In this document: in pieces, positions 7,141 through 57,959 of the stretch
Layout of the letters: each line of letters opens with the position of its first letter
How positions within the stretch are numbered: position 1 is the stretch's first letter
Source: Candidatus Forterrea multitransposorum CG_2015-17_Forterrea_25_41
Lineage (GTDB): Archaea; Iainarchaeota; Iainarchaeia; Iainarchaeales; CSSED10-239
Direction: 5' to 3'
NCBI GenBank assembly: GCA_009392915.1
Contig: CP045477.1
Span: forward strand, 64,001-128,000
DNA: 64,000 bases
Notes under the pieces: generated by a model
Told to the model about the DNA's origin: nothing
The model's database searches: none
Seen by the model: the letters and a program-made list of their open reading frames with translations, nothing else
Translations under genes and position numbers: made by a program

Positions 7141-7159
7141 GAAAAAATGTGATATAAAT

Positions 7160-7618: not shown

Positions 7619-7637
7619 TTTTAAAAAGTGATTTTAA

Positions 7638-11129: not shown

Positions 11130-14100
11130 ATGAACTATAAATATTTTTTTGTATTTTTATTAGTAGTTTTATTTTCATCAATGGTATTTTCATACACAAT
11201 TGGTTTTGATTATGCTGAAGTTAGAACTACAAGTTATCCTAACTATCTTAATTATCAATATGCTCATTACTATGATAATATTGATCTAAGATATGGTGTT
11301 TATGGAAGTGGAATTTCTTCTCCAGTAACAATAATTGTTTCTCCAAAAGTTTATGGAATAACAACTACTGGTCAAAGAGTCTTTGTTCATAATATACAAA
11401 CTCATTCTTTTTCAATGAATCCTTCTTCTTTTTATACTTATAGTTATAATCCAATGTTTTCTTTTGATCCTGCATATCAAAGTTATGAAGTTGTTTTAGA
11501 TCTTCAAAGTTCAGATGGATCTTTTAATAATTCTGTAAGTAGATATGTTTATTCTCAAGGAACAAATCCAAACCCTGGAGGAGATGATCCTACAGGTGAT
11601 GATCCTAATGTAGTTAGTTGTGATGATTTTTATGTTTCAGGAATGGAAGATATTTATTTAGATGAAGATTCAAGAGAATATTATAATCTTTATTTAGTAA
11701 ATTCTGTTGACTTGCCACTTACAATAACTTCAGTTACAGTTTCTCCAAATAATCCTACTAACTTAGAAATTGAAGATATTACTTATCCTTTTACAGTTTC
11801 TGCTCTTCAAACAAGAAGTGCACAAATTGAACTTTTTACAGATACAGTTTCTTCTGATTATTCAAATAGTTTTCAAATAGAAGTTAAAGGTAAATATGAT
11901 AATTCTTTAACTTGTGAAAAAACATATAATGTTAATTATAGAATACTAGATGCTGAACTTGAAAATAATGGTTCTTGTAGTGATATAAGAATTTTAGATG
12001 ATTATTTTACAATGAGTGATAATTCTTCTAAAACTTTTGAAATTGAAGTTTCAAATGCTTCTCAAGATTATTATTTTGAAGTTGATGATATTGATTTAGA
12101 TACTACAAATGATTCAATAATTGAAGCTAGTGTTAGAAACACAATTGATAAAATATATACAGATTCTTCTAAAATTTTAAAAATAAATGTTTCTTCAGAT
12201 GACACTTCTTTTTATAGAACTGAAAAAATTGATTTAGAACTAACAGGTTATTTAAAAAGAGAAAACAGAGAAGATAAAAAATGTAGAATAAGAGAAGATG
12301 TTTCAATAAGAGTTTCTCCAGATTCTTCAACTGGAAATACTTCAAATGAATGTGATGATATAAAAATATATACAAGAGATGTTTTCCAAGATTCTCAAAT
12401 AACAGAAAACTACTCTCTTCAAGAGGGTTTTTATATTTATAATGGAACTAATAAAAAATTTACTGTATCAGGTATTAACTATAAAGACAATACTATGTAT
12501 GCAGATATCTTTTCAAAATCTTTTGATTATACTCTTTATCCTAGATCCTCTAATGCTTTAAATTTTGATATAAGAACAAGTGAAGTTTCAGAAAATAAAC
12601 TTTCAAATGCAGAAATTTCTATTCAAGGATATTTTGAAGGTGGACTTTCTTGTAGTTATTCAGATATAACTTCAAACTTTAATTTAACTATAAGAGAAGA
12701 AAATGATTTTTGTTCAAATGTAGGTATTTATGATGACAGTTTTGTTGAAGGTGAAAATTATTTTACAGTTTATAATAACACTAATAAAGACTTTACTGTA
12801 AATGATATTATTTCTCAAAATTCAGTTAACTCAAATGTAGGTGTGATTGATTCTTCTTTTAAAGTTTTAAAAGATTCACAAAAAACTTTTAGAGTTGGTT
12901 CTTCAGGAAATGGTAGTTTTGAGCTTTTAGCTAAAGGTGTTTTTTCAGATGGCACTTCTTGTGACTATACTCAAACAAGCAGTGGTTATTTCAATAGTGA
13001 TTCTGGTTATGATTTTTCAGATACTTCTTGTGAATTTGAATTTAATTATCCAAATGTAAAATATATCTCTTTAAACGGAGACTCTCTAAATTTTGATTTT
13101 AGAAACTTAACTGGAAAATCTGGTGAGATTAGACTTTCTGCAGTTGGTGCTGTAATTGAAGATCCAATTATTAAGTTTTCTTCATATTCATCTTTTAATA
13201 AAGAAATAGATCTTTTAAATATTAAAAATCCAAAAATGGTTCTTTATACAATTGAAATTTACGGTTGTTCTAAAAAATCATATTTTACAAATCTTTATCC
13301 TTTAGGAAATTCTATTCAAGGAGATGTTTCATTTTTAACATATCCTAGTAATTTAATTTCAACTAAAGATAAATTTATAAGTTCTTTTTCACTTAAAAAC
13401 TCAAGTAGTTTTTCAGAAGATGTTGAAATTAAATTTTCAGGTTTTACAAGTGCATTTAATTTTGTATCTTCTCCTTATCCATTAAACCCAAATACTTTCT
13501 CATCTTCAGATAATGTTTCAACAGTTACAATAAATCCAAACTCTACAAAAAATATTTATTTTGGAGTTGATGTTTTAGAAAATGCAGAATATAAAAAATA
13601 TAATGGATATATTGAAGTTTATAGTAATAATAAATTATTATTTAAAGAGCCTTTATCAATAGATAGATCAATTACTACTAATAATTTATTAGTAAATACT
13701 ATGGTTGAAAAGACATCTGTTAAAAATACTGTTCTTTTAACATTTACTTTTGAAAACAAATTACCTGACCTTACAAGAGAACTTTATTTATCTTTTGAAG
13801 ACGAGAATAGTTTTGAAGTAGATGGTAATAGAAATATATCTGTTGCACCATTAAGTGTACTTGAAAGAAGCTTTACTGTTAAATATAATGAAGGTTCTTT
13901 ATTTAAGTATAATTTAATAGATACAGATAATTCTTCTCTTGCATATTCTGGAGAAGTAGATTTAAAAGAAATTGATAATTCTTCAAATCTTTTATCTGGA
14001 TTTTTTACTCTTTCAGATACAAAAGGATTTATATTTGCAATTGTTCTTATATTACTTATAGCTTTAATTATTTTCTTAATAGTTTATGGAGATAAATCTA

Positions 14101-14273
14101 GAGCTAAAAGAAAACAAGAAACTAAATCAGTTTTAGAAACACAAGAAAAAATAAAAGAAGAAATTAGAAAAGATAATTTTTCTAATATTACTAAGTCTGA
14201 GATTATAATAGGAAATAAGCCTATTATAAAGCCTGCAGAACCAAGACAGATTACTTTAGGTGAGCTTGATTAA
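11130..14273 (+). CDS. large surface protein (1047 aa): signal peptide, five Cys-bracketed modules, TM anchor, charged tail
   Basis: N-terminal signal peptide. Repeat modules of about 110-125 aa each begin and end with a Cys (aa ~164-713). TM segment GFIFAIVLILLIALIIFLIV followed by an ~80-aa K/E-rich tail. Confidence 0.8.
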   Translation: MNYKYFFVFLLVVLFSSMVFSYTIGFDYAEVRTTSYPNYLNYQYAHYYDNIDLRYGVYGSGISSPVTIIVSPKVYGITTTGQRVFVHNIQTHSFSMNPSSFYTYSYNPMFSFDPAYQSYEVVLDLQSSDGSFNNSVSRYVYSQGTNPNPGGDDPTGDDPNVVSCDDFYVSGMEDIYLDEDSREYYNLYLVNSVDLPLTITSVTVSPNNPTNLEIEDITYPFTVSALQTRSAQIELFTDTVSSDYSNSFQIEVKGKYDNSLTCEKTYNVNYRILDAELENNGSCSDIRILDDYFTMSDNSSKTFEIEVSNASQDYYFEVDDIDLDTTNDSIIEASVRNTIDKIYTDSSKILKINVSSDDTSFYRTEKIDLELTGYLKRENREDKKCRIREDVSIRVSPDSSTGNTSNECDDIKIYTRDVFQDSQITENYSLQEGFYIYNGTNKKFTVSGINYKDNTMYADIFSKSFDYTLYPRSSNALNFDIRTSEVSENKLSNAEISIQGYFEGGLSCSYSDITSNFNLTIREENDFCSNVGIYDDSFVEGENYFTVYNNTNKDFTVNDIISQNSVNSNVGVIDSSFKVLKDSQKTFRVGSSGNGSFELLAKGVFSDGTSCDYTQTSSGYFNSDSGYDFSDTSCEFEFNYPNVKYISLNGDSLNFDFRNLTGKSGEIRLSAVGAVIEDPIIKFSSYSSFNKEIDLLNIKNPKMVLYTIEIYGCSKKSYFTNLYPLGNSIQGDVSFLTYPSNLISTKDKFISSFSLKNSSSFSEDVEIKFSGFTSAFNFVSSPYPLNPNTFSSSDNVSTVTINPNSTKNIYFGVDVLENAEYKKYNGYIEVYSNNKLLFKEPLSIDRSITTNNLLVNTMVEKTSVKNTVLLTFTFENKLPDLTRELYLSFEDENSFEVDGNRNISVAPLSVLERSFTVKYNEGSLFKYNLIDTDNSSLAYSGEVDLKEIDNSSNLLSGFFTLSDTKGFIFAIVLILLIALIIFLIVYGDKSRAKRKQETKSVLETQEKIKEEIRKDNFSNITKSEIIIGNKPIIKPAEPRQITLGELD

Positions 14274-34396: not shown

Positions 34397-36484
34397 ATGC
34401 AGTTAAAGAAACTAACTTTAGTTTTATTATTTTTATTTATTTTTTCCATACCAGTTTTTTCTTCTTCTATAACTCTTTATGTTTCCTCTCCTTTTTCCTC
34501 TTCATCTTCAAATTTTAGTATTTCTCCTTCACTTTCTTTTGACAAGTTATCTTTAGTTTCAGAAGATAATTTATCTTTATTAAGAGAGCAAAATATTATT
34601 GTTAAAGAAGAAATTATTAAAGAAAAAGAATCTTCTTTAGAAGATAATTCTCTGTTAGAAGAAATAAATTCTCCAAATCATATTTATGAAACTTATTTTC
34701 AAGATTCTGTAATGATTGGAGATGTTTATTTTCCAGAAGGTATAATTGATTCTTCTCAAGTAAGAGAAAGAAGAAATATTAACTCTCAGTCTACAGTTGA
34801 TAATATTTGGGGTACCACTCCATTAACTGGAGAATATCATATTCCTGTTTTTTTAGTTGATTTTTCAGATGTTCCACATACTCTTTCTAAAGAAGTTTTT
34901 GAAGAACAATTTAATTCTCCTCTTTACTTGGACGGTAATGGTACAAGTGTAAGTCAGTATTACAAGAAACAATCCTATGGTGAACTTGATATTACTTTTG
35001 ATGTTTATGATTGGAGAGAAATGCCTGAAACTTATGAATATTATAGTACAAGATTAGGTGTTTTTGGAGCTCAAACAATAGATCTTTTTGGAACTGGTCC
35101 AAATGCAATTGATTTAACTCAATATGATTCTGATAATGATGGTAGGATAGATGGTTTTGTAATTGTTCACGCTGGTTTTTCTTTACAGAACGCTGGTACT
35201 GGTCATATTAAGACATCTACTTTATTAATGTATTCTGATGAAATTTTAACCATTCAAGGTTTGCATTATGGTAATATAGCTGTTACTTCTGAGAGATATC
35301 CTAGTTGTTCTTCTGGTTTTAATGAAAATTTAATTCCATATCCAGATGATTGTAGAATTGGTGTTTTAGATCAAACACATGAGTTTGGTCATATTTTAGG
35401 TCTTCCAGACTTTTATGGTATTGATCCAAATACTGGTGGTCAATCTCCTGGTCTTCAAAACCTAACTATGATGATGATGTATGATGACATTCCTCAAAAA
35501 CCAATTAATTTAGATGCTTGGGCAAGATATTTTTTAGGTTGGATACAACCAACTGTAATTGAAGAGGGCATGGAAGGTGTTTATCCAGTTTATTCAATTG
35601 ACACCAATCCAGATGGTGCTTTTATTTTACAAGATCTAACTGAGATGGATGAACGTGAATTTTTTATAATTGAAAATAGATTTATGCAAAACTCCCCTTA
35701 TAATCAAGATACTTTTCTTTTAAACACTTCTCAACTAAATTGGGATTATTTAAATGGTCATTTTGGTGGAATTGCAGTTTATCATGTTGATGAGCAATAC
35801 ATTGAAGATAATTATCCAACTAACAGTATCATGTGGGATCCTGATGGAGATTTTTATGATGATACTATAGGGCATCCTGGAATCGTTTTTGAAGAAAATA
35901 TAAAATTTTCAGAAAATAATTGGGATTATTCATTAGGAGATTTATATTCTAGTGAACGTAATGCTGGTTTTGGAGATAATACTTTTGGTAATTTTGATAG
36001 ATACCAAAGATTTTATCCAGAATATAATATGTTATGGGATTATCACAATAAAGCCTATAATGGTAATTTAACTGGTGTTACTGTTGGCACTTTAAGTGGT
36101 AGTGGATCTATAGTTTATGCTTATCTTCAAAGTTATCAAGAAACTTTTAATGCTTTAATCTCTTCTCCAAAAAATAACAGATGGTATAAGTATACTAATA
36201 ATTTAAATTTCATTTCAAGTTATTATAATAATTTAGGAGATGTAAGTTGTGTTTGGGAAGATTCCAGTAATAATATTCTATCTCAAGATTGTGAATTTTC
36301 TGCAACTCCAGAAGATTTAGGTTTACCAATCAGTGAATGTTCTGAGAAAATCACTCTAACTTTAGAAATAACAGATCAAGAAACTGGTGATACAATTATT
36401 GATACTGTTGATATAAAGATTTATGAAACCATAAGAGATATTTGTGAGACTGCTCATAACAACACCCAAGCAGCCACAAAATAA
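34397..36484 (+). CDS. secreted M6-family (immune inhibitor A-like) zinc metalloprotease
   Basis: Sec signal peptide. HIPVFLVDFSD...SVSQYYKKQSYGELDITFDVYDW and HEFGHILGLPDFY (HExxH) fit the M6 domain. Confidence 0.8.
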   Translation: MQLKKLTLVLLFLFIFSIPVFSSSITLYVSSPFSSSSSNFSISPSLSFDKLSLVSEDNLSLLREQNIIVKEEIIKEKESSLEDNSLLEEINSPNHIYETYFQDSVMIGDVYFPEGIIDSSQVRERRNINSQSTVDNIWGTTPLTGEYHIPVFLVDFSDVPHTLSKEVFEEQFNSPLYLDGNGTSVSQYYKKQSYGELDITFDVYDWREMPETYEYYSTRLGVFGAQTIDLFGTGPNAIDLTQYDSDNDGRIDGFVIVHAGFSLQNAGTGHIKTSTLLMYSDEILTIQGLHYGNIAVTSERYPSCSSGFNENLIPYPDDCRIGVLDQTHEFGHILGLPDFYGIDPNTGGQSPGLQNLTMMMMYDDIPQKPINLDAWARYFLGWIQPTVIEEGMEGVYPVYSIDTNPDGAFILQDLTEMDEREFFIIENRFMQNSPYNQDTFLLNTSQLNWDYLNGHFGGIAVYHVDEQYIEDNYPTNSIMWDPDGDFYDDTIGHPGIVFEENIKFSENNWDYSLGDLYSSERNAGFGDNTFGNFDRYQRFYPEYNMLWDYHNKAYNGNLTGVTVGTLSGSGSIVYAYLQSYQETFNALISSPKNNRWYKYTNNLNFISSYYNNLGDVSCVWEDSSNNILSQDCEFSATPEDLGLPISECSEKITLTLEITDQETGDTIIDTVDIKIYETIRDICETAHNNTQAATK

Positions 36485-36570
36485 AAAAATAAGTAAACCA
36501 TTTATATACTTTATGTTATATAATTTATAATATAATTATTTAAAATAAAAAATAAATTAAGGTGAATATT

Positions 36571-39531
36571 TTGATAAAAATAAAAAAAGGACAAATTTCT
36601 TTAGAAGCAATTATTATAATTGGTGTTATTGTTTTAGCAAGTATTATATTTGCGACATTCTATATTTCTAATGTTAATAAAAAAATAGATACTGCAAGTA
36701 ATCTAGATCCTAATTTTTCTGGAATGATTGGATCTGATGAAATGGGGTCAACTGATCCTATAACTATTGGTGAAGAACCAGGTCCAGGCCCAGGTCCAGG
36801 AGGAAGTACTTGTGGTGATAATATTATTGAAGGTACAGAAGATTGTGATGGTACTAATTTAGGTGGTGCTACATGTGAGTCTGAAGGTCAAGGTACAGGA
36901 GATTTATCTTGTAATTCAAATTGTACTTTTGATTATTCTGGTTGTTCTAGTCCAACAGCAAGTTATACAATAACTTCAAGTCATGGATCAAATGGAACTA
37001 TTTTTCCTTTAGGAGCTGTAACAGTTTTAGAAGGGGCAAGTAAAAAATTTAATTTGTATCCAAATGCAGGTTATGATGTAGATACTGTTTCAATTGATGG
37101 TGCAGAAGTTTCTCTTAGTGAAAGAAGAAGTTATACTTTTAATAATGTTACTTCCGGTCATACTATTCATGTAACTTTTAAACCTTATGCTTCAAATGAA
37201 CATATTATTTTTGCAAGTAGTGGTTCTCATGGAACCATAGATCCTGCAAGAAATAATACAGTTATAGAAGGAGATGATATTACTTTTACATTTAATCCAG
37301 ATACAGGATATCGTGTAGGTAATGTCTATATTGATGATACTACTGTTGGTTCAGAACAAATAGAGATTATTAATGATTTTTCTTCAAAAGATTCTGAAAA
37401 TAATAATTTATATTTTTCAGAAGAAGATGTTTTATATTTTGCATCTGATACAGGGACAGGTACTTCTTCAAATTTAGTTTATACTTTTGAAGATGTAGAT
37501 GATAGTCATACTATTCATGTAACTTTTATATCAAACACAACTCCTACATATACTTTAGAATATATTGCTGGAGCAAATGGTAGTATTTCTGGTCCAAATC
37601 CTCAAACTGTAAGTCAAGGAGAAGATGGTACAGAAGTATGTGCTGTTGCAGATGAAGGTTATGAATTTTTTAAATGGGATGATGATTATTATTCTGAATG
37701 TAGAACTGAAACAAATGTAACAAGTAATCAAACATATACTGTTATCTTTAATGAAAATGCAGGTCAAACAATGGCTATGAATTTAGAAGGTGTTGAATCA
37801 ACTCCAATAAATCAAAACTTTGATGTTGTTGTTAATACTTCTGAAACTCCAGGAACTGTAAGTTATGGTTTAGTTGCAGGATTATTAATTTATAATGATG
37901 TTGCAGGAGATTATTTGCCAACAAACAATTGTTCTTATAACGGAACTTTTGCTTCAAATCATACACTTGAAACAAATCAATCTCCAGGTATTGAAAATTA
38001 TACTTTTACATGTAATACTTCTGGAAACTATAAATTTACATTTACAGCAACAGATACAACTAACTCAACAAATGATGTTTCAAGAGATAAATTAATTACT
38101 GTTGTAAATAACCAAACAGCAGCACCAACATTTTCAATTGATGGAGGTACTTATTTTAATGATCAAACATTAACTTTAAGTTCAACAACTCCTAGTGCAA
38201 CTATAAAATACACAACTAATGGTACTATCCCAACTTGTACTACAGGAACAACTTATTCTCCTGCAAGTCCAATTCAAATTAATCAAATTTTAACAGTAAA
38301 AGCAATTGCTTGTAAATCTGGATATATTGATAGTCAAGTTGTTACAGAAATTTATAATTTAAAAGTTGGATATCCAGAACCAAGTGTTAATCCTGGTGTA
38401 TATTCTCAAGCACAGACAATTACTCTTTCAACAGAAACAATTGGTGCAACTTTGTATTATTCAACAGATGGTTCTGATGCTTTTGATGGAAGTGTTTACG
38501 TTCCAGGAGAAGAAATTATAATTTCAAAACCATATACTGAATTAAGAGTGGCAGGAGAAAAATCAAATTATAATGATAGTTCAGAATTTGATGAATATTA
38601 TTATATAAATGGTTATGAATCTCCAACTCCAAGTATGGTTTTTACAAATTATTATGGAGATGCATATAATCTTGTAGGTGCTGCAAATTTAACTCACTCA
38701 GATGTTTTCTTTGAAGATGAAGAAAATAATTTAGTAAGATTTGTTAATCCTAAATTAAATGGAGATTATTTTAACGGAAGTAATGCTTCAGGAGCTACAT
38801 TAATAGATTGTGAGGCATTTTGTTCTGAAAAGTATCTTGGAGGAACTTGTGATTCTTTTGATAAAACTAATTATTCTGGAAATGCAAATAATTTGATATA
38901 TTATAGAAATATGATTCCTGGTTCTGGTGGTGCAAATGATGTTTTCCCTTACACAATTGGGGGTGAGTTATCTAATTCTCCTCAATGGGCTTATGCTTCT
39001 GGAGCTATTGGTGGACCAGATAGAGTAGGATACTTCACTTGTGATTTTTCACACACCTCCAGTCCAGAAGATGCAGACTTTGGATTTATTGATTTATATA
39101 CTGAAGATTTATTATTAAATTATGGTGATCCATTTGATGGTACAGAATTCTATTATGATTCTTCAAGAGTAACTTTTGATAATGTTACAAAGTCTGGTTC
39201 AGAATATACTTATTCAGGTTTAAATGTTGTAGGTAATTTTGACACACCAGGCGCAACTGCTCCAACAGGAACAGTTTATATACTTTCAGATGATTTTTCA
39301 CAAGCTTGTGATGCTGTATGTGATGCTTTATATCAAGAAAGTTCTTGTGAAAATTATGATACAACAGATGTATATACTGCTAAAGGAGTTTCATATAATT
39401 ATTATCCTCCTGAATATGCAACAATATTTAATCCTAATTTAAGTACAGGTTATTATTGGACATCTGGAAGTCAACTTTTCTATGATGTTTGGTCAGAAGC
39501 TGTTCTTTCAGAAGTTACTTGTTCAAAGTAA
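36571..39531 (+). CDS. very large type IV pilin-like (class III signal peptide) adhesin-type protein
   Basis: The track start GTG at 36562 lies inside the AGGTGA SD, so the TTG at 36571 is the likely start. N-terminus IKIKKG/QISLEAIIIIGVIVLASIIF (KG|QxSxE plus hydrophobic helix). Then a GPGPGPGG linker, a CGDNxxExxEDCDG Cys-rich repeat, three beta-repeat modules (two ending HTIHVTF), and two chitobiase-C-like modules (APTFSIDGGTY..., EPSVNPGVY...). Confidence 0.75.
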   Translation: MIKIKKGQISLEAIIIIGVIVLASIIFATFYISNVNKKIDTASNLDPNFSGMIGSDEMGSTDPITIGEEPGPGPGPGGSTCGDNIIEGTEDCDGTNLGGATCESEGQGTGDLSCNSNCTFDYSGCSSPTASYTITSSHGSNGTIFPLGAVTVLEGASKKFNLYPNAGYDVDTVSIDGAEVSLSERRSYTFNNVTSGHTIHVTFKPYASNEHIIFASSGSHGTIDPARNNTVIEGDDITFTFNPDTGYRVGNVYIDDTTVGSEQIEIINDFSSKDSENNNLYFSEEDVLYFASDTGTGTSSNLVYTFEDVDDSHTIHVTFISNTTPTYTLEYIAGANGSISGPNPQTVSQGEDGTEVCAVADEGYEFFKWDDDYYSECRTETNVTSNQTYTVIFNENAGQTMAMNLEGVESTPINQNFDVVVNTSETPGTVSYGLVAGLLIYNDVAGDYLPTNNCSYNGTFASNHTLETNQSPGIENYTFTCNTSGNYKFTFTATDTTNSTNDVSRDKLITVVNNQTAAPTFSIDGGTYFNDQTLTLSSTTPSATIKYTTNGTIPTCTTGTTYSPASPIQINQILTVKAIACKSGYIDSQVVTEIYNLKVGYPEPSVNPGVYSQAQTITLSTETIGATLYYSTDGSDAFDGSVYVPGEEIIISKPYTELRVAGEKSNYNDSSEFDEYYYINGYESPTPSMVFTNYYGDAYNLVGAANLTHSDVFFEDEENNLVRFVNPKLNGDYFNGSNASGATLIDCEAFCSEKYLGGTCDSFDKTNYSGNANNLIYYRNMIPGSGGANDVFPYTIGGELSNSPQWAYASGAIGGPDRVGYFTCDFSHTSSPEDADFGFIDLYTEDLLLNYGDPFDGTEFYYDSSRVTFDNVTKSGSEYTYSGLNVVGNFDTPGATAPTGTVYILSDDFSQACDAVCDALYQESSCENYDTTDVYTAKGVSYNYYPPEYATIFNPNLSTGYYWTSGSQLFYDVWSEAVLSEVTCSK

Positions 39532-39552: not shown

Positions 39553-39589
39553 AAAAGCTTAATTTCTTTTAAGCTTTTCTTTTTTTTTT
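39553..39589 (+). terminator. 10-bp hairpin plus long T tract
   Basis: AAAAGCTTAA (39553-39562) pairs with TTAAGCTTTT (39569-39578), followed by CTTTTTTTTTT. Confidence 0.5.
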
Positions 39590-39715
39590 CTTTTTATATA
39601 GCTTTTTTTAAATAATTATATTTAAAAACATTCCTCCATATATAATATTTATATATATAGTTCTTTTTTTTAAAAAAACTAAAAAACCAATGACACTATA
39701 AGGAGGTTGTTTGTC

Positions 39716-40255
39716 ATGTCTGAATTTATAAAATTCTCTGTACCTGAAGATTTAAGAGTTTTACAAGATGAAACTATTAAAAAATTATCAAAATCAGGTA
39801 AAATAAAAATAGGTATAAACGAAGTTACAAAAACAATTGAAAGAGGAAATGCAAAATTTGTTATTATTGCTGAAGATGTATCTCCTGCTGAAATTGTAAT
39901 GCATATACCAATAATCTCAAAAGAGAAAAAAATCCCTTTTTCTTATGCAAAAACTAAAGAAGATTTAGGTAAAATGGTTGGTATCTCTGCAAAAGCAAGT
40001 TGTGTTGCTATAACAGATGCTGGTTCAATGCAAAAAGAATTAACAACATTAATTGATAAGATTGAAGAAGTTTCTGGTGGTAAAAAAGCAGCTGTAAAAA
40101 CAGAAGATGTTAAAAAAGAAAAACCTTCTCCTAAAAAAGAAGAAGTAAAAAAAGAAGCTCCTTCTCCTAAAAAAGAAGAAGAAGTAAAAAAAGAAACACC
40201 TAAAGAAGAAAAACCAGAAAATAAAGAAGAAGTTAAAAAAGAAAACAAAGAATGA
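39716..40255 (+). CDS. rpl7ae: 50S ribosomal protein L7Ae (eL8) with repetitive K/E/P-rich C-terminal tail
   Basis: GINEVTKTIERGNAKFVIIAEDVSP.EIV.HIP......IPF. AGGAGG SD with the ATG at 39716 (track TTG at 39707). The tail carries PSPKKEE(E)VKKE repeats. Confidence 0.92.
   Translation: MSEFIKFSVPEDLRVLQDETIKKLSKSGKIKIGINEVTKTIERGNAKFVIIAEDVSPAEIVMHIPIISKEKKIPFSYAKTKEDLGKMVGISAKASCVAITDAGSMQKELTTLIDKIEEVSGGKKAAVKTEDVKKEKPSPKKEEVKKEAPSPKKEEEVKKETPKEEKPENKEEVKKENKE
40124..40198 (+). repeat. in-frame tandem repeat (36/39 nt) inside the L7Ae tail
   Basis: CCTTCTCCTAAAAAAGAAGAAGTAAAAAAAGAAG occurs at 40124 and again at 40160 with one extra GAA codon. Confidence 0.7.
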
Positions 40256-47897: not shown

Positions 47898-49103
47898 TTG
47901 ATTAATATGTTTTCAAAAAAAATTATTTTAGTATCTGTTTTATTTTTACTTACATCTTTATTTTCGGGGTTGATTTTCTCTGAAAGATATATAGATAGTT
48001 CTTATGTTCAAGTTATTGCTCAAGAAGTAAGTCCTGAACCAGTAGAGCCTGGTCAAGATTTTTTACTAAAAGTTAGAGTTCATAATTTTGGAACAGTGGA
48101 TGCTAAAAATGTAAAAATTAATCTTGATTTAAATTATCCTTTTTATTTAAAAAATACAAGTGAGTCTTATATTGACTTTAATTCGATTTGTTCTAATTGT
48201 TCTGCAGAAAATACATATTATTTTACAGTTTCAAGTTCTGCAGTTTCAGGGATATATCCAATACATTTTAATATATCTGAAATAAATAATGAAACTGTTT
48301 CTTTTAAACCTCAAATAATAGATATTTCCATATTAGGTAAACCTGATTTAGTTTTAGAAACCATAAAAGTAGATCAAAATATTTCTGCCGGAGATATATT
48401 TAATATTAAATTTTTATTAAGGAATATAGGTACTGGGAATTCTAGAAATATAAAAATAATTCCTAATTCTGATGATTTTATGCTTATTGGGACAAATACT
48501 AAATGGTTTGAAGAATTAGGTCCCAATAAAGAAATTATTTTTGATTTAAATTTTATTTCAAACAAAGATTTAATTTCAAATAGTTATATTTTTCCTATAG
48601 ATCTTGAATTTTTAGGAGAAAAACAAAATTTTTATACCTCTTCATATAATATTGGAATTAATCTTTTAGGAAAAGCAGATTTATCTTTACAAAATTTAAA
48701 AATTACTCCTTTAAACCCTTCTTTAAAAGATTTAATTAATTTTGAAGGAATTATTGAAAATATAGGAAATGGAAAAGCAAATAATGTTTCTTTAGAATTA
48801 TTTGTTTCAAATGATGAGAATTATAAATATTATATTGGTCAATTAAATAAAGATGATGATGCTCCTTTTTATTTTAATGAAATTAAATTTAATTCTGTTG
48901 GAAATAATAAAGTAAATTTGATTGTAAATTATGATGATGATTACGGTAATTATAAAATAGAAATTCCTTTAAATCAAAATATAAATAAATCTAATAATTT
49001 ATCTTTATTTTTTATAGTTTTATTTTTATTTTTGGTTTTATTTTTTAGTTTGTATTTATTAAAAAATAATAAACACAATAAAAATAAAAAAATAAAGAAT
49101 TGA
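47898..49103 (+). CDS. secreted COG1361/CARDB-like repeat protein with C-terminal TM and basic tail
   Basis: Signal peptide, then repeated EPVEPGQDF.L.V.V.N.G...AKNV.I.L-type beta-sandwich modules. C-terminus LSLFFIVLFLFLVLFFSLYLLKNNKHNKNKKIKN. Start is TTG 47898 or ATG 47907. Confidence 0.7.
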   Translation: MINMFSKKIILVSVLFLLTSLFSGLIFSERYIDSSYVQVIAQEVSPEPVEPGQDFLLKVRVHNFGTVDAKNVKINLDLNYPFYLKNTSESYIDFNSICSNCSAENTYYFTVSSSAVSGIYPIHFNISEINNETVSFKPQIIDISILGKPDLVLETIKVDQNISAGDIFNIKFLLRNIGTGNSRNIKIIPNSDDFMLIGTNTKWFEELGPNKEIIFDLNFISNKDLISNSYIFPIDLEFLGEKQNFYTSSYNIGINLLGKADLSLQNLKITPLNPSLKDLINFEGIIENIGNGKANNVSLELFVSNDENYKYYIGQLNKDDDAPFYFNEIKFNSVGNNKVNLIVNYDDDYGNYKIEIPLNQNINKSNNLSLFFIVLFLFLVLFFSLYLLKNNKHNKNKKIKN

Positions 49104-49114
49104 TTTAGATTTAT

Positions 49115-50314
49115 ATGAATAAAAAAGATATTAAGCTAATGTTTTTTTTAGCTTATAAAAATATAATTAAAAGTAAATCTACTTTTATTGTAATTGTAGC
49201 TGTAATGGCTATGAGTTTTTTGTCAATAACTTTTTTTTCTGCAATTATTGATGGGTTAAGTTATGAATTTGAAGAGTCGATGATTGATGGTCAAACAGGG
49301 CATTTAATGATCGAACCATCTAATGAAGAAAGTTTTATATTTAATTCTGATAGATTAGAAAAAAATATTTCTAAAATTCCAGGAGTAATTGGTGTTTCTT
49401 CAAGATTAGAATCAAATATTTTAATTACTTATAAAAATGAAGAGCTAGGGGCACCTGTTTTCTTTATTGATCCTATTGATGAACAAAAAGTATCTAATTT
49501 TCATGAAAGTTTAATAGAAGGTAGTTTTCTTTCATATAAAGATACATCTGAAATTATTATTGGTTCTGATTTACTAGAACAGTATGCGCCTATAGATGAT
49601 ACTAAGAAAAGGTTTAATCTTAGAATAGGGGATAATATTATTTTAACTTTTAATAATGGTTATAAAAAAGAATATAAAATCAAAGGTATTTTTAAAACAG
49701 GTTCTAAGTTTAATGATGATAAAATTTTAATTAATAAAGAAGAATATTTTTCAATATTTAATAAAGAAGATATTTCTCATAAAATACTTGTTAAACTTCC
49801 TTCAAGAGGTCTTGAAAAAGAATATATTCAAAAGATAGAAGCTTTAGGAATAATTGAACAGATTAACCCTTGGGAAACTAAGATTGGTATGATTAAACAA
49901 TTTGTAGGAAGTCTTCAAATTACAAATCAGATAACTGGTTTTATAGGTTTATTAACTGCATTTGCAACAATTTACATAATTATTTTTATAAATGTAACTA
50001 ATAAAAGAAAGCAGATAGGTATATTAAAAGCTATAGGTATAAAAAAAAAAATTATTCTTGGATCATATATTATTCAATCTTTTATTTATGGTTTTGTAGG
50101 TGTTATTTTTGGAAATATTATTATGCAAATTTTGTTGGCTTTACTTGCAAGTTATCCATTATCTATGCCTATTGGGGATGTAGTTCCATTACTAACAATA
50201 GGTAAATTATTAACTACCTCTTTTATTTTAATTTTAGCCTCTATTGTTGCAGGTTTTTTCCCTTCTAGAAAAGCTTCTAATGATAATATCTTAGATGCTA
50301 TATTTGGAGGATAG
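49115..50314 (+). CDS. ABC transporter permease, FtsX/MacB-like
   Basis: 399 aa. N-terminal TM, large extracytoplasmic domain, then three C-terminal TMs with KRKQIGILKAIG (FtsX family hallmark). Confidence 0.85.
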   Translation: MNKKDIKLMFFLAYKNIIKSKSTFIVIVAVMAMSFLSITFFSAIIDGLSYEFEESMIDGQTGHLMIEPSNEESFIFNSDRLEKNISKIPGVIGVSSRLESNILITYKNEELGAPVFFIDPIDEQKVSNFHESLIEGSFLSYKDTSEIIIGSDLLEQYAPIDDTKKRFNLRIGDNIILTFNNGYKKEYKIKGIFKTGSKFNDDKILINKEEYFSIFNKEDISHKILVKLPSRGLEKEYIQKIEALGIIEQINPWETKIGMIKQFVGSLQITNQITGFIGLLTAFATIYIIIFINVTNKRKQIGILKAIGIKKKIILGSYIIQSFIYGFVGVIFGNIIMQILLALLASYPLSMPIGDVVPLLTIGKLLTTSFILILASIVAGFFPSRKASNDNILDAIFGG

Positions 50315-50317
50315 ATT

Positions 50318-51007
50318 ATGATTAAAAATATTATTGAAGTAAATAAACTTGAAAGAATATATTCTAATGGAATTGTTAAAACTTATGCCTTAAAAGACGT
50401 TTCTTTAAGTATAAAACCTGGTGAATTTGTTGCAATTATGGGGCCTAGTGGTTCTGGAAAAAGCACTTTACTTCATCAGTTAGGACTGTTAGATACTCCA
50501 ACTAATGGAAGTATTATTATTGATAATGAAGATGTATCGAAATTAACTGATAAACAAAAAACTACCTTTAGATTAGAAAAATTAGGTTATGTTTTTCAGT
50601 CATATAATTTATTACCAGAACTTAATGTTATTGAAAATGTTTTTTTAACCTCTATGGCTAAAGGTTTAGATCCTAAAGAATATAATTTGAGAGCAAAAGA
50701 TATTCTTGAAAAAGTAGGTTTAAAAGATAGATTGTATTATTATCCTTCTGAACTTTCTGGAGGTCAACAACAAAGAGTTTCTATTGCAAGAGCATTAGTT
50801 AATAAACCTAAAATTTTATTTGCAGATGAACCAACTGCAAATCTTGATTCTGATTCTTCTCAAGATATAATTGATTTATTTAAAAAATTAAATAAAGAAA
50901 TTAATCAAACTATTGTTATGGTAACACATGAATTAGAAGAAGGTAAAAAAGCAGATAGGATAATTTGGATTAAAGATGGTATTCTAGATAAGTCTGTAAA
51001 AGTTTAA
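50318..51007 (+). CDS. ABC transporter ATP-binding protein (MacB/LolD-like)
   Basis: Walker A GPSGSGKST, signature LSGGQQQR, Walker B ILFADEPT. Confidence 0.93.
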   Translation: MIKNIIEVNKLERIYSNGIVKTYALKDVSLSIKPGEFVAIMGPSGSGKSTLLHQLGLLDTPTNGSIIIDNEDVSKLTDKQKTTFRLEKLGYVFQSYNLLPELNVIENVFLTSMAKGLDPKEYNLRAKDILEKVGLKDRLYYYPSELSGGQQQRVSIARALVNKPKILFADEPTANLDSDSSQDIIDLFKKLNKEINQTIVMVTHELEEGKKADRIIWIKDGILDKSVKV

Positions 51008-51799: not shown

Positions 51800-52474
51800 G
51801 TGTTTGATATCGCAGATTTTCCAAAATTAGAATCTCCCTTTATAAGAAAAACTATTAATGAAAAATATATAGTAACTTTTGAGATTAATCCTAAATATAA
51901 ATGGATTTTTAATAGAAACATTGTTTTAGCTTCAGAAAAGATAGATGGAACTAATGTTTCAATAATTATAAATAAAGGAAAAATAATTGATATATACAAT
52001 AGAAAAAATAAAATTGAAATATTAGCAAATAAAAAATATTTTAGATTTATAGATGGTATCAACTATGCCTTATATAAAGAATTATTTAGAACAAATAAAT
52101 CTATGCAAATATTTGGAGAATTAATTGGGCCAACAGTTAATGGAAATCCCTATAATGAAGTAAGAAACATATGGGTGCCTTTTTCTTACTTAAAAGAAAA
52201 ATGTGAATTTAAATTTTGGAATAAATTTTTAGAAGAAGAAATTGACGGTAAAGATTTAAGCGAAAAAGAAATATTTGAAAAAACATCAAATATTTTTAAA
52301 AATCTTTGGAGTCTTTATTATAGAAGAAAAACAGGCGAAAAGATATTTGCTGAAGGAATTGTATTTTATAATAAAGAAACTGGAGAGATGTGTAAACTAA
52401 GAAGAGATATGTTTGATTGGTATGAAGGAATTAGTCATGATTTTTTTAAAGCTAAAGCAAAAAAAGATCTATAA
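51800..52474 (+). CDS. Rnl2-family ATP-dependent RNA ligase, nucleotidyltransferase domain only
   Basis: Motif I SEKIDGTNVSIII (KxDGxN; compare T4 Rnl2 EKIHGTNFSLII), motif III FGELIGP, motif IV AEGIVF, motif V CKLRR. 224 aa. GTG start after a GAGGTGG SD. Confidence 0.7.
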   Translation: MFDIADFPKLESPFIRKTINEKYIVTFEINPKYKWIFNRNIVLASEKIDGTNVSIIINKGKIIDIYNRKNKIEILANKKYFRFIDGINYALYKELFRTNKSMQIFGELIGPTVNGNPYNEVRNIWVPFSYLKEKCEFKFWNKFLEEEIDGKDLSEKEIFEKTSNIFKNLWSLYYRRKTGEKIFAEGIVFYNKETGEMCKLRRDMFDWYEGISHDFFKAKAKKDL

Positions 52475-52500
52475 AATGTAATTTTTATAAACATATTTTA

Positions 52501-52555
52501 TATTACTCACATCTGTGTATTACTCACAATCTTTTTAAATGTTTTGAGTAATACA
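52501..52555. promoter_or_regulatory. three copies of a TATTACTCA(CA) motif (two direct, one inverted) upstream of fic
   Basis: TATTACTCACA at 52501-52511 and 52518-52528. TGAGTAATACA (the reverse complement of TGTATTACTCA) at 52545-52555. Located between the TATA-like TTTTTATAAA (52482-52491) and the ATG at 52561. Confidence 0.45.
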
Positions 52556-52560
52556 TATTT

Positions 52561-53496
52561 ATGAGTTATTTATCTAAACTTAAAAGAAATAATAAAACAT
52601 ATTATTATCTTGTAGAAAATATTCCTATATCTAAAGGTAGGCGAAAACAAATTAGAAAATATATAGGGACAATTAAACCTACAGATCAAAAATTATCTTT
52701 AGAACTATTAAAGTTTGAAAAAGAAATTACTTCTAAAAAAAAACAAATGCAAGGATTTACCTATTTAACTAAAGAAGAAATAAAAGAAGTAGATGAAATT
52801 AATTCAAATTTTTGGAAAAAATATAATAAATTATCAAAAACTGAGAGAGAAGAATTTTGGAATAATTTTATTGGAATTTTTGTTTTTAACACAAACTCAA
52901 TAGAAGGTTCAACTTTAACATTAAAGGAAGTTGAACTACTATTATCTGAAAATATATCTCCAAATAGACCTTTAGAAGATGTTTTAGAAGCAAAATCTGC
53001 AAAAAAAGCAATTAATTTTATTTTAAATTATAAATCTGATTTGTCAATAGATTTAATTACTAAAATTCATAAAATATATTTTAAAGAAAGCTTTCCAGAT
53101 ATAGCTGGTAAATTTAAAAGATTAAATAATAGAATAAAAGGATCAAAATTTGATACTACTCCAAAAGAACTAGTTTTAACTGATTTAAAAATACTTATAG
53201 ATAATTATAAAAAATTTAAAAAAGAATTACATCCAATAGAATTATCTGCTTGGTTGCATTGGTCTTTTGTAAAAATTCATCCTTTTCAAGATGGAAATGG
53301 AAGAATTTCAAGATTACTTATGAATTTTATACTTTTTAAAAATAAATATGCTTTAATAGATATTAAAACAAAAGAAAAACAAACATATTTTAATTCTCTT
53401 GAAAAATGTAATTATTTGAATAATGGAAAACCATTAGCTCAAAGATTAGTTAGAAGATTTAAAAAACAGTATAAAAATATATTTTCAAATTTATAG
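52561..53496 (+). CDS. Fic/Fido-domain protein (class II, internal inhibitory motif)
   Basis: Active-site loop HPFQDGNGRISR (HxFx[DE]GNGRxxR). Upstream TNSIEG matches the [ST]xxxE[GN] inhibitory helix motif. Confidence 0.88.
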   Translation: MSYLSKLKRNNKTYYYLVENIPISKGRRKQIRKYIGTIKPTDQKLSLELLKFEKEITSKKKQMQGFTYLTKEEIKEVDEINSNFWKKYNKLSKTEREEFWNNFIGIFVFNTNSIEGSTLTLKEVELLLSENISPNRPLEDVLEAKSAKKAINFILNYKSDLSIDLITKIHKIYFKESFPDIAGKFKRLNNRIKGSKFDTTPKELVLTDLKILIDNYKKFKKELHPIELSAWLHWSFVKIHPFQDGNGRISRLLMNFILFKNKYALIDIKTKEKQTYFNSLEKCNYLNNGKPLAQRLVRRFKKQYKNIFSNL

Positions 53497-54380: not shown

Positions 54381-57300
54381 ATGAAAAATAAGATACTAAT
54401 AATTTTTTTATTTACAATTTTACTTTCAACTTTTATTTTTTCAGATCCTGTTGTAAAGATAAATGATAATTTAACAACATATACAAACAGTGATTCTGAA
54501 AACTTCTATGTTGAAGTAAGTAATACTGGAGATAATTGTGAAGTTGAATCTGATTTTATAAGTATTAATTTAAGTTCAGATGCAGCAAGTTCTTTTCCAT
54601 ATTTAATATACTGTAATCTTGAAAGAAATTATAGTGGTTATTTTTCAGTAGATTTTTCAACAAACACACCAACACCTCCAATACCAAATGTTTTAGTTAA
54701 TAATGAAGATACTGTTATTGCAGACTATAATGGGTTTACTGCTAATTTAGTAGTTGACACAATAAATACTATAACAGGAACTTTTGATTTAAATTCTGTT
54801 GATTCAGTTGTAAATAATTACTATAAAGGAGATGTTGAAGTTACTTCTTTAAGTTCTTTTTCAGATGCACATTCTGGTTTAAAAGAATATTACATTTATA
54901 TTGTTGAAGTTGATTCAGTAAATGACTATAGAGATGATTATTATAAGAGATTAATTGTAGATGTTAATGAAACTTCTATTGATTTAGGTACATCTACAAC
55001 TGTTTCTGATGGAAATTATTTTGTTTTAGTTGAAGCTTTAGATTATGCTGAAAATCTTGCAATACCTTCTCAAGTAATTTTAAATAAAAAAAATATGTAT
55101 GTTGATAATACAGCACCTCAAGTAACTTCTTTTAGTTTAGGAAGTTTTTCAGAAGGTACAACTTATTATGTTCCTTCAACAACTACTACTTTGACTTTAT
55201 TAATTGAAGATGATGGTGTAGGGGTAAGGAATGAACCTCTATATACACAAATAGATAGAGATAGTGTAAAGTTAGCAGATTATAATTCTATATTAGGCGG
55301 TTTCTTTTTTGATTTTACAACAGTTGATTATGATATTGATGGTTCATATGAGCTTGCAGCAACAGATCTTTTAGGTAATTTAAATGAAAAAACATTTTCA
55401 ATAATGATAGATGAAACTTCTCCAACAACTCCAACAATTTCAACAGTTACAAGAGCTGTAGATAATAATGTTACAATTTCAAATTGGGGTACTTCAACTG
55501 ATTCTGGAAGTGGTTTAAAAGAATACAAAGTCTATAGGTCAACTTCTTCTTTTACAGAAGTTTCAAATCAAGATTTAATTTGTACAGTTTCTGCAGCTGC
55601 TTCAAAAACTTGTCTTGATTCAACTTCAAAATCAGATGATACAAGATATTATTATGGTGTTACTGCAGTTGATAATGCAGGAAATAATAGTCCAGTTGTA
55701 ACTGCAAGCATAAAAACAGGTCCTGAACTTGATATTTATATTGATTTAGAAGATTCTGATTTTGTAAATACTGTTACTCCAGAGATAACTTTAGAGTATG
55801 GTTCTGATGTTAATGCTGTTAGATTTAGTTGTAATGCTTCAACTTTTACATCATGGGTTGAAGTTTCGGGAACTTCTGAGGTTTATGAAAGTTTTAATGT
55901 AACTTCTGGAAATGGATGTAATACAGATCAAGGAGATAAAATAATTTATGTTGAAGCAAGAAGTGAAGACGATCCTTATCTTATTACTAGAGAATCTTTT
56001 GAGTTTGAACTTGATTCAAAAGCACCAACAATACCTAGTAACATAGAAGTTTTAGAACAAGCAAATGGTTCTTTAAATATTTCTTGGACAAGCTCAACAG
56101 ATGTAAATGGTAGTGGTCTTGAAGAATACAGGATTTATTATTCAGAATCTGAGTCAGTTTCTAAATCCTCACAATATATGACTTCTTCAGATGAAGAGTA
56201 TATTTTTAATCCTAATGAAGATAAAACATTTTATTTTAAAATATCTGCAATTGATGAAGCATTAAATGAATCTGATCTTTCATCTATTGCTTCTGGAACT
56301 GCAAAAAGATTTGGACCTTCTTTTACTTTTAATGCAAGCCCAAAAAATTTAATTGATGATGTTTATTATTTAAAAAAAGGAAATGTTTTATTTACTATTA
56401 CAAGTAGTGAAGAATTAAAACAAACACCTATTATTAGACTTAAAATTGGTAATTCACCTTATAAATCAATTTCTGCAATTTATAGTAATTTAATTACAAC
56501 TTTTAATTATTCTTTAGAAGAAAGTGGAGATTCAATTTTAGAAATTACAGGTACAAATAATAATAATGAAACAACAACTGATACTTTTAATTTTATAGTA
56601 GATGCAGAAGTTCCAACTTTTACTGCTGACTATAATTTCTTTGAAGATACTAAATTATATGAATTTAAAATAAGTGATTTTTCAGATGATGTTTTCAGAG
56701 TTCAATATTTATTTAATAATGTTGAAGAAGTTTGTTTTATTGAAGATTCAAATAACAATTATCTTTGTTCACTTGATTCTACTCTTTATAAAGATGGTAA
56801 TCATAAAATGTATGTTTTAGTTTATGATAGAGCATTAAATTATGAAACTGAAATTATTTCTTTTGAAATAGATAATGTTGATGAAGCTTTAATTTTAAAA
56901 GAAAATTTAGTTGCTGAAATTAATACAAATATTTTTACAATTGAAGATAGAATTTCTTTCCTTCAAGCAATCTCTTTAGAAGTTTCTCAAGATGTTTTAG
57001 ATAAATTTTCTGAAGCTAAAGAAAAAGTTGTTCTTGCAAAATCTCTAGAAGATTCAAATAATTTTTCAGAAGCTGTAAATACTTATACTTCTGTAAATAA
57101 TTCTTTACTTGAGATATTAGAAGTTTTACCTACAGAAAATGTTTTAAAAACAAAAACTATTGAAATTGATCTTTTAGATAATTCTTTTGATCTTAATACA
57201 GTTATTTTGGATCAAAATATATTAACTGATAATTTGTCTTTTTATGATGTTAATAATCAAGACCTAAATTTTATATCAGTTTCAAGAGAATTTAGTGTTT

Positions 57301-57959
57301 TTGAAGTATCTGGTCAAAACTTTTATTCTAGTAATTTAATTTTTGTAAATGACTCTAATGTAGATAAAGTAATTTCTTTTATTGAAGTAATACCTAAAGA
57401 ATTTGAAAAATCTTCAGATAATATTTATTTTGATAGAAATATTGTTGTAATTGATAAAGATCCAATAATTCTTTATAATTTAGTAATTCCTAAAAATTCT
57501 TCTCTTACAACAAAATATATTAGTCAAACAGCAATTACAAGTTTTGATATTTTAACTAAATTTGATGCAATTGTTTACAAGTCTCCTCTTCTTTTAACTG
57601 GATCTGTAAATTTAGAAGATTTAAATTTTGAAAAACCTTTAATTGATAGTAAATCTTTATTTATGATAGCAGTTGTTCTTTTAATAATAATTATCTTACT
57701 TTTAGTAATCTGGATGGTGGCTTCTGGTCGTAAGAAAAAAGAAGATGTCTTTAAAGAAATGGAACCTAAGGATGCTATGAATAAATATCTTGGAAATAAA
57801 CTAAATAGTAATTCTCAAGAAAAATCTTCAACTGATTCTTCTTCATCTAAAACTTTAGAAGAAAAAGAAGAAGAGCATAAAAGTGATCTTGAAAAGAAAA
57901 AGAAGTATGATAGTAATTATGAGTTTATTTTAGATGCTGTTAAAAGAAGTAATAAATAA
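54381..57959 (+). CDS. large surface protein (1192 aa) with FN3-like modules, C-proximal TM and long charged tail
   Basis: Signal peptide. Recurrent SGL(K/E)EY.(I/V)Y...(Y/F)Y....A.D.A.N modules (three seen). TM LFMIAVVLLIIIILLLVIWMV followed by an ~100-aa K/E/S-rich tail. Confidence 0.8.
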   Translation: MKNKILIIFLFTILLSTFIFSDPVVKINDNLTTYTNSDSENFYVEVSNTGDNCEVESDFISINLSSDAASSFPYLIYCNLERNYSGYFSVDFSTNTPTPPIPNVLVNNEDTVIADYNGFTANLVVDTINTITGTFDLNSVDSVVNNYYKGDVEVTSLSSFSDAHSGLKEYYIYIVEVDSVNDYRDDYYKRLIVDVNETSIDLGTSTTVSDGNYFVLVEALDYAENLAIPSQVILNKKNMYVDNTAPQVTSFSLGSFSEGTTYYVPSTTTTLTLLIEDDGVGVRNEPLYTQIDRDSVKLADYNSILGGFFFDFTTVDYDIDGSYELAATDLLGNLNEKTFSIMIDETSPTTPTISTVTRAVDNNVTISNWGTSTDSGSGLKEYKVYRSTSSFTEVSNQDLICTVSAAASKTCLDSTSKSDDTRYYYGVTAVDNAGNNSPVVTASIKTGPELDIYIDLEDSDFVNTVTPEITLEYGSDVNAVRFSCNASTFTSWVEVSGTSEVYESFNVTSGNGCNTDQGDKIIYVEARSEDDPYLITRESFEFELDSKAPTIPSNIEVLEQANGSLNISWTSSTDVNGSGLEEYRIYYSESESVSKSSQYMTSSDEEYIFNPNEDKTFYFKISAIDEALNESDLSSIASGTAKRFGPSFTFNASPKNLIDDVYYLKKGNVLFTITSSEELKQTPIIRLKIGNSPYKSISAIYSNLITTFNYSLEESGDSILEITGTNNNNETTTDTFNFIVDAEVPTFTADYNFFEDTKLYEFKISDFSDDVFRVQYLFNNVEEVCFIEDSNNNYLCSLDSTLYKDGNHKMYVLVYDRALNYETEIISFEIDNVDEALILKENLVAEINTNIFTIEDRISFLQAISLEVSQDVLDKFSEAKEKVVLAKSLEDSNNFSEAVNTYTSVNNSLLEILEVLPTENVLKTKTIEIDLLDNSFDLNTVILDQNILTDNLSFYDVNNQDLNFISVSREFSVFEVSGQNFYSSNLIFVNDSNVDKVISFIEVIPKEFEKSSDNIYFDRNIVVIDKDPIILYNLVIPKNSSLTTKYISQTAITSFDILTKFDAIVYKSPLLLTGSVNLEDLNFEKPLIDSKSLFMIAVVLLIIIILLLVIWMVASGRKKKEDVFKEMEPKDAMNKYLGNKLNSNSQEKSSTDSSSSKTLEEKEEEHKSDLEKKKKYDSNYEFILDAVKRSNK

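Follow-up and report, generated by a model that had tools for sequence, protein, structure and literature searches.

A large gene on the forward strand of a chromosome segment from Candidatus Forterrea multitransposorum (assembly GCA_009392915.1, contig CP045477.1, positions 64,001 to 128,000; these 64,000 nucleotides are hereafter the window and carry their own numbering) probably encodes a modular type IV pilin-like adhesin of archaeal type that would be processed by a class III signal peptidase. Established directly, from predicted genes and proteins, are the N-terminal signature of this protein (the target), its domains, the occurrence of its N-terminal module on proteins of different sizes, short pilins encoded adjacent to large homologs, and platform genes in the locus of a relative. 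With a GC content of 19-30%, the window is archaeal chromosomal DNA very rich in AT, and a ribosomal protein gene cluster and SecY dominate it; the target gene sits between a protease gene and ribosomal protein genes, and its closest database relatives come from uncultured archaea.

The original prediction for this region, made from the letters alone, described a giant protein of about 986 amino acids (aa) and preferred a TTG to a GTG start, and both points were confirmed. The open reading frame (ORF) spans 36562-39531 and gives 989 aa from the GTG or 986 aa from TTG 36571. A JGI protein identical to the window protein begins at TTG 36571 (printed L), three orthologs (83-85% identity) start at the equivalent position, and the one ortholog read as DNA has a TTG-type codon there; these data support the TTG as the better choice, and the spacer between GGTGA and TTG 36571 is 5 nt. 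A true start elsewhere had been named as something that could remove the predicted KG/QxSxE processing context (slashes mark the predicted cleavage site); with either candidate start, GTG 36562 or TTG 36571, KG/QISLE is retained.

Read from the TTG, the N-terminus is MIKIKKG/QISLEAIIIIGVIVLASIIFATFYISNVNKK, with a hydrophobic helix of about 25 residues. It has Lys at -2, Gly at -1, Gln at +1, Ser at +3, and Glu at +5, with Ile instead of Leu at +9 (QISLEAIII); we take the PF04021 (Class_IIIsignal) motif to be a short basic leader ending in Gly or Ala, Lys or Arg at -2, and then Q-x-S-x-E-x-x-x-L. A profile search of this segment, proposed with the original prediction of a class III signal, agreed with it: the N-terminal 127 aa from the TTG score 26.8 bits (E 4.7e-6) against PF04021, above the curated Pfam cutoff of 23.7 bits. 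TIGR04205, the NCBIfam class III model, gives a weak match in all six of the family N-termini searched, and G/QxSxE is invariant among homologs down to 34% identity. When a FlaFind-style pattern with a hydrophobicity filter was applied to the window plus 10 kb on each side, the target was the only ORF picked; mean Kyte-Doolittle hydropathy is 2.3 across the 22 residues after the predicted cleavage site, and AlphaFold places a helix at residues 11-42 with moderate confidence. NCBI already lists NCP72376.1, which falls in the target's 90%-identity cluster, as a "class III signal peptide-containing protein." The pilin-specific peptidase EppA needs Gln at +1, and its substrates also have Glu at +5 (PMC4371748); EppA-type sites of the Methanococcus maripaludis Epd pilins read KGQI or KGQV, and the KG/QI of the target is the same as that of EpdE (PMC4371748). 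The other large surface proteins of the window pair a classic Sec signal with a transmembrane segment at the C-terminus, and the target has no C-terminal anchor; base composition therefore does not account for its targeting signal, which differs from theirs. Together, these results support the prediction from the protein sequence that the signal is of class III (type IV pilin-like), here with Gln at +1 and Glu at +5.

Relatives of the target indicate how far the pilin-like part extends. P0016, a 1155-aa protein with 34-38% identity to the target (A1 alignment, BLASTP), has the same N-terminus and a similar, not identical, module order. Directly upstream of its gene, in locus L006, a 128-aa protein is encoded that reads MFLKNKQKA/QTTIEVIVILGV...FYLSNQNKK, followed by a linker, a 6-Cys knot, and the stop codon. 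The same pairing recurs in L011, where a 128-aa protein precedes a 950-aa one, and in L018, where a 172-aa protein lies directly upstream of an 864-aa one. In L006 and L011, the six cysteines of the 128-aa proteins align with those of the giants. As the 128-aa proteins consist of signal, helix, linker, and 6-Cys knot alone, this unit is a self-standing pilin-sized protein, and the giants are the same unit with modules added. The 6-Cys module is thus a component of a conserved "pilin module" rather than of the putative adhesin part. Counting the 128-aa proteins and the matches in genome and metagenome collections, this N-terminal module is present at protein lengths of 97, 128, 344-347, 694, 864, 950, 986-990, and 1155-1165 aa, and the signal and helix with no further module at 59 and 83 aa. 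The expectation that proteins of 100-200 aa are the usual carriers of such signals does not hold for this N-terminus, which is seen on proteins of 59-1165 aa. The 344-347-aa paralog occurs in the same metagenome-assembled genome as the ortholog P0002 (L014) and also in L021, a metagenome contig of the same Ga01003xx name series as contigs carrying window genes. A profile search with the N-terminus in a word-indexed database returned only P0121, a 97-aa fragment of a paralog.

The signal type can also be placed next to pilus machinery. A metagenomic locus, L025, carries two genes for T2SSF platform proteins (E 9e-16 and 6e-14) and, after them, genes for five proteins of class III type (59, 153, 521, 480, and at least 410 aa). 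Of these five, three match PF04021 (two above threshold); by these gene predictions, L025 ties the signal type to pilus machinery and shows that large members are normal. P0011, a protein of 1332 aa named "flagellin-like" in a JGI metagenome, joins nine InlB B-repeats to a PF07790-like pilin N-terminus, and by its domain matches is a second, independent archaeal case of a pilin N-terminus joined to the repeat type found in the target.

Conservation differs along the protein. Identity is highest in the helix, at 91-97% in orthologs and 51% against P0016. Among orthologs the distal modules reach 68-80%, and they are not recognizably related to P0016; such a profile suits a protein whose assembly end stays constant and whose functional end varies. 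The distal modules vary between family members. In one relative, the 694-aa L015p (L015 80-2164; JBAWVI010000036.1), the pilin module is accompanied by two Cys-rich repeats and four CHB_HEX_C domains, and the C-terminus holds a DUF1554/endostatin-like domain (E 9e-4). We take DUF1554/endostatin-like domains to belong to the C-type lectin-like clan, and L015 suggests on this basis that lectin-like distal modules occur in the family of the target. Separately, in L008 a 97-aa pilin-module ORF (175-468) breaks off within the Cys knot and is followed, after a 114-nt gap, by a 683-aa CHB_HEX_C ORF (583-2634); the pair, found in three contigs (L008, L009, and L020), looks like a disrupted or misassembled P0016 paralog.

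Beyond the pilin module, the target carries what the domain matches support as a multidomain, adhesin-type array (Table 1; residue numbers are counted from the TTG start). Most of the modules proposed originally were recovered. The GPGPGPGG linker is read directly in the sequence; the three beta-repeat modules, two of them ending in HTIHVTF (aa 197-203 and 313-319), are InlB B-repeats, with a whole-protein PF18998 score of 45.6 bits against a cutoff of 23.6 and a match from each of the three segments alone; and the two chitobiase/hexosaminidase-C-like modules match PF13290 (CHB_HEX_C_1) with 70.5 bits against a cutoff of 22. A Cys-rich repeat of Myxococcus type had also been proposed. The 6-Cys module itself stands, and its six cysteines are kept in all five full-length members of alignment A3, but the Myxococcus-type label is weakly supported: the target has no match to TIGR02232 or DUF4215 (PF13948) at E<=1, and the best values, E 0.0025 (TIGR02232) and 0.079 (DUF4215), come from three of the other sequences in the six-member alignment A3 and were taken as below the curated cutoffs. 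All 20 cysteines of the target are kept in four orthologs, the number of cysteines is even in every module, and C357 and C377 are lost together in P0016; the target also has 26 N-x-S/T sequons. The 10 kb upstream of the window contain genes for an AglB/STT3 oligosaccharyltransferase and a Glycos_transf_4 protein (L001 1242-4212), which is consistent with N-glycosylation of the sequon-rich surface proteins; the sequons and the AglB/STT3 gene both agree with an extracellular glycoprotein.

Table 1. Features of the target gene and its flanks, in window coordinates
Feature	Position	Strand	Remarks
AGGTGA, Shine-Dalgarno-like	36560-36565	+	Read directly; includes the alternative GTG start 36562
TTG start and 7-residue basic leader MIKIKKG	36571-36591	+	Predicted class III signal peptidase cut after Gly7
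Predicted mature N-terminus QISLE and hydrophobic alpha-1 helix, aa 8-37	36592-36681	+	Closes with the family motif FYISNVNKK
Low-complexity linker including GPGPGPGG, aa 38-80	36682-36810	+	Read directly; pLDDT 24-35; length differs among family members
6-Cys knot, aa 81-125 (C81, C92, C102, C114, C118, C125)	36811-36945	+	End of the shared pilin module
InlB B-repeat 1, aa 126-206, ends HTIHVTF	36946-37188	+	PF18998; best-modeled part, pLDDT 70-78
InlB B-repeat 2, aa 207-322, insertion of ~45 aa, ends HTIHVTF	37189-37536	+	PF18998, partial match
InlB B-repeat 3, aa 323-398, Cys pair C357/C377	37537-37764	+	PF18998, E 1.9e-10
Ig-like beta domain, aa ~399-515, Cys pair C454/C481, many N-x-S/T sequons	37765-38115	+	Weak matches to Big_9, PKD-like, and GOLD; predicted beta strands
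CHB_HEX_C_1/Fn3_assoc domain 1, aa 516-598	38116-38364	+	E 3.8e-16
CHB_HEX_C_1/Fn3_assoc domain 2, aa 599-682	38365-38616	+	E 3.5e-9
Orphan C-terminal module 1, aa 683-832	38617-39066	+	Cys spacing C-x3-C-x8-C...C; no Pfam match; 4/4 Cys kept in orthologs
Orphan C-terminal module 2, aa 833-986	39067-39528	+	Same Cys spacing as module 1; least conserved part, 74-79% in orthologs
Inverted repeat AAAAGCTTAA / TTAAGCTTTT, then a long T run	39553-39595	+	Read directly, 3' of the stop codon; putative function in transcription

The Cys-containing C-terminal region could not be placed originally, and our searches left it so. Its approximately 300 residues have no Pfam match, and an exhaustive phmmer search with the region against 1.84 billion representative proteins found only the target's own cluster, which makes the region a sequence orphan. 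A word-index search with the last 307 aa is uninformative, as it had no hits and missed even the target itself; a search of solved structures with the whole protein gave no match. Modules 1 and 2 share a local similarity of 21-25 residues around the Cys motif (BLASTP E 0.002; hhalign local E 6e-4), and module 2 may tentatively be regarded as a very divergent duplicate of module 1. AlphaFold2 models of the full-length protein (5 sequences; mean pLDDT 38.5) and of the C-terminal 307 aa (4 sequences; mean pLDDT 32.5) were both too poor to be usable for fold comparison. A resemblance between GYFTCDF and GFYCFEQ, together with the DUF1554 match in L015p, gave rise to the idea that the C-terminal modules are divergent C-type lectin-like/DUF1554 domains; we rejected this, as the hhalign probability was below 1% and Pfam gave no match.

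On our favored reading, translation would begin at TTG 36571, the basic leader and the hydrophobic helix would direct membrane insertion, and the cut after Gly7 would be made by a class III signal peptidase; because residue +1 is Gln, this peptidase would probably be EppA-like. QISLE and the helix, together with the flexible linker and the small 6-Cys knot, would then act as an assembly and anchor module, which would either place the protein in a type IV pilus-like filament of short pilins with the same helix or anchor it in the membrane; both filament display and membrane tethering are compatible with the favored reading. Within a filament, the protein would be expected at the tip or in low abundance, because an ectodomain of approximately 100 kDa cannot polymerize alone. 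The stalk would consist of six beta-sandwich domains (three InlB B-repeats, one Ig-like domain, and two CHB_HEX_C domains), stabilized by disulfides and probably N-glycosylated, and it would display two fast-evolving, Cys-stabilized distal modules that may bind some ligand.

Several points weigh against this reading. The PF04021 score of the full-length GTG form is 23.5 bits, 0.2 bits under the cutoff. As noted originally for the window, and as we found for the 10-kb flanks on each side as well, no pilus ATPase, platform protein, or prepilin peptidase is encoded there, and the FlaFind-like pattern found no short pilins besides the target in the same range. We know of no archaeal precedent for the incorporation of so large a protein into a filament. 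Pfam and NCBIfam scans detected no catalytic or known ligand-binding domain in the target, and the distal ~300 aa have neither relatives nor a usable model; for this last reason, the word "adhesin" rests on domain types and analogy.

In one alternative, the target would be a surface adhesin tethered in the membrane outside any filament, its signal either processed or left uncut as a signal anchor, with the helix holding the ectodomain; we consider this rather unlikely. The gene stands alone among housekeeping genes with no pilus machinery or short pilin in the range searched, the ectodomain is very bulky, and the arrangement resembles what has been proposed for the substrate-binding proteins of the Sulfolobus bindosome, whose subunits are, in the available portions of the sources, non-pilin users of class III signals (PMC4371748; bioRxiv 10.64898/2026.04.22.720090). 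Set against this, the helix and the motif after it are conserved with proteins of 128-172 aa encoded beside giant homologs, and in L025 the signal type adjoins the T2SSF platform genes. In bacterial pili, Glu at +5 is used for pilin-pilin packing, and the target has this residue. Stand-alone pilin genes are, moreover, common in archaea according to the available text of PMC4858521, so that the absence of nearby machinery is weak evidence.

A bolder form of our favored reading, in which the target is one member of a pilin repertoire, appears doubtful to us at present, and more so than tethering. In it, Iainarchaeum-like archaea of the small-genome DPANN group would possess a lineage-specific family of modular pilins, each with a constant assembly module of EppA-type signal, alpha-1 helix, linker, and 6-Cys knot and with interchangeable distal modules (orphan Cys modules in the target, the DUF1554/endostatin-like domain in L015p, and other Cys-rich modules in P0016); the giants would be tip adhesins that set partner or substrate specificity, and an M6 protease would be a functional partner. 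The protease in question, a secreted InhA-like metalloprotease of the M6 family whose HEFGH motif is intact, is encoded directly upstream of the target (window 34397-36484, forward strand). In L021, a 37%-identical M6 paralog (5380-7767) lies directly downstream of the 344-aa pilin-module paralog; the pair of a pilin-module protein and an M6 protease is thus seen twice, in opposite order.

This neighborhood, together with the name of CHB_HEX_C_1, which is taken from chitobiases, is also what speaks for a surface-displayed carbohydrate-active or polymer-degrading protein that would capture or hydrolyze polysaccharides through its CHB_HEX_C domains and orphan C-terminal modules, possibly with the adjacent M6 metalloprotease, instead of attaching cells. 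We regard such a function as very improbable, as neither a glycoside hydrolase nor another kind of catalytic domain was detected in any part of the target, and CHB_HEX_C domains and InlB B-repeats are noncatalytic beta-sandwich modules that occur in many unrelated surface-protein architectures. Finally, low GC (about 25-29%) favors Lys- and Ile-rich N-termini and the PF04021 score is only marginally above threshold, so an ordinary Sec-secreted protein processed by signal peptidase I, with a coincidental pilin-like motif, was considered; it is the least credible of the alternatives and was rejected by inspection and by the HMM results, given that the ~25-residue hydrophobic stretch is too long for a cleavable Sec signal and is followed by no A-x-A-type site, that G/QxSxE is invariant among homologs, that no other ORF in equally AT-rich DNA fits the pattern, and that the other secreted proteins of the window have classic Sec signals.

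The surroundings of the gene were also inspected. The inverted repeat and T run downstream of the stop codon are likely to be a transcription stop, and the target gene is therefore probably monocistronic. The upstream spacer is AT-rich and contains a TATA-like TTTATATA at 36501-36508, which means little in DNA of this composition. Elsewhere in the window, a 1192-aa surface protein (54381-57959, forward strand) combines a Sec signal and Big_13/fn3-like domains with a transmembrane segment near its C-terminus, beyond which lies a long, charged tail in the cytoplasm. A surface protein of 1047 aa (11130-14273, forward strand) likewise has a C-terminal transmembrane segment; judged from their predicted topology, the two show a second anchoring mode for large surface proteins in the same organism. 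The 1047-aa protein is encoded near a 180-aa membrane protein (9304-9846, forward strand) with a weak, below-threshold exosortase/archaeosortase match (PF09721, E 2e-4), as is a 118-aa Tyr/Asn-rich secreted protein (10746-11102, forward strand); no PGF-CTERM-type motif is evident in the C-termini read. At 47898-51007 (forward strand), genes for an FtsX-type permease and an ABC ATPase come after that of a secreted 401-aa protein with a CARDB domain, a MacB-like arrangement also kept in the ortholog contig L007. At 39707-40255 (forward strand), the homolog of ribosomal protein L7Ae has a Lys/Glu/Pro-rich repetitive C-terminal tail of ~60 aa (KKEKPSPKKEEVKKEAPSPKKEEE...), which is unusual for L7Ae, and an RNA ligase-family protein (PF09414) adjoins a Fic/DOC-family protein (PF02661) at 51800-53496 (forward strand).

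Among characterized systems, the Epd pilins of M. maripaludis (EpdA-E, the EppA substrates; PF04021, formerly DUF361) share with the target the basic leader, K-G/Q-I/V with Gln at +1 and Glu at +5, and the hydrophobic alpha-1 helix (PMC4371748). The Epd pilins are small, the main one having no globular domain according to the available part of bioRxiv 10.64898/2026.04.22.720090, whereas the target has ~950 extra residues in nine or more modules; neither an Epd-type operon nor an EppA gene was found in the window and its 10-kb flanks. The Sulfolobus bindosome proteins are, in the portions of the sources available, large non-pilins with class III signals that need a type IV pilus-like assembly machinery (PMC4371748; bioRxiv 10.64898/2026.04.22.720090). 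They differ from the target in their solute-binding domain, of which Pfam and NCBIfam scans found none in the target, and in their link to ABC transporters, which the target likewise does not have. Two "relatively large pilins" with class III signals are known from Haloferax volcanii (PMC4371748). Large Cys-rich, Ig-fold-rich secreted proteins in archaeal pilus loci are interpreted as adhesins or minor pilins in the available text of PMC4858521 and bioRxiv 10.64898/2026.04.22.720090; those proteins are defined by their place inside pilus loci, unlike the target with its protease and ribosomal neighbors, and the same portions of the two sources do not mention the target's domain set of InlB B-repeat, CHB_HEX_C, and orphan modules. 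In DPANN genomes, pilins are frequently described as lacking or unannotated even alongside pilus machinery, and Tad-like pilus clusters often have no annotated pilins (PMC9563170). The available part of PMC11623550 describes Saccharibacteria, ultrasmall members of the Candidate Phyla Radiation (CPR) with reduced genomes, as using type IV pili for host binding in episymbiosis; that system, the functional parallel behind the original suggestion that the target could be a host-attachment device of a probably episymbiotic archaeon, is bacterial and genetically tested, whereas the role suggested for the target is putative.

A conceptual parallel exists with the bacterial modular pilins, of which more than 1,200 proteins in 264 architectures have been described, the largest reaching 860 aa (Candidatus Falkowbacteria, CPR) (PMC8179133); PilB and PilC of Streptococcus sanguinis have been studied experimentally as adhesins (PMC8179133, PMC9934059). 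These proteins and the target alike combine a pilin module, a short linker, and one or more functional modules, which in the bacterial proteins serve filament display. A pilin module that exists alone is found in the 128-aa proteins of L006 and L011, and non-pilus domains (InlB B-repeats, Ig-like, CHB_HEX_C_1, and orphan modules) are fused after the linker of the target. The bacterial set was, however, collected through the N-terminal signature IPR012902; the target is archaeal, of PF04021 type, and larger, and it has a 6-Cys knot in the place of the pilin head. Because it matches the archaeal PF04021, it is a counterpart to the bacterial set and not a member of it, and the word "archaea" is absent from the main text of the paper describing that set (PMC8179133). 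The original suggestion that the architecture had not been described was overstated, in view of the bacterial modular pilins (PMC8179133), the archaeal bindosome proteins, the large archaeal class III adhesin-like proteins in the available text of PMC4858521, and the name that NCBI has already given to a cluster member. The novelty is limited to a PF04021-type family of archaeal modular pilins whose pilin module has a Cys knot, to its members of ~1000 aa, and to its orphan distal modules, in an Iainarchaeum-like lineage. It offers a recognizable pilin module for one DPANN lineage and a set of candidate adhesins; if the giants are displayed on pili, they would be obvious candidates for what lets these small-genome archaea hold onto surfaces or partner cells, and their fast-evolving distal modules would be the place to seek specificity. 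Conceptually, the family would be an archaeal, PF04021-type counterpart to the bacterial modular pilins, with a mechanism that is already familiar from them.

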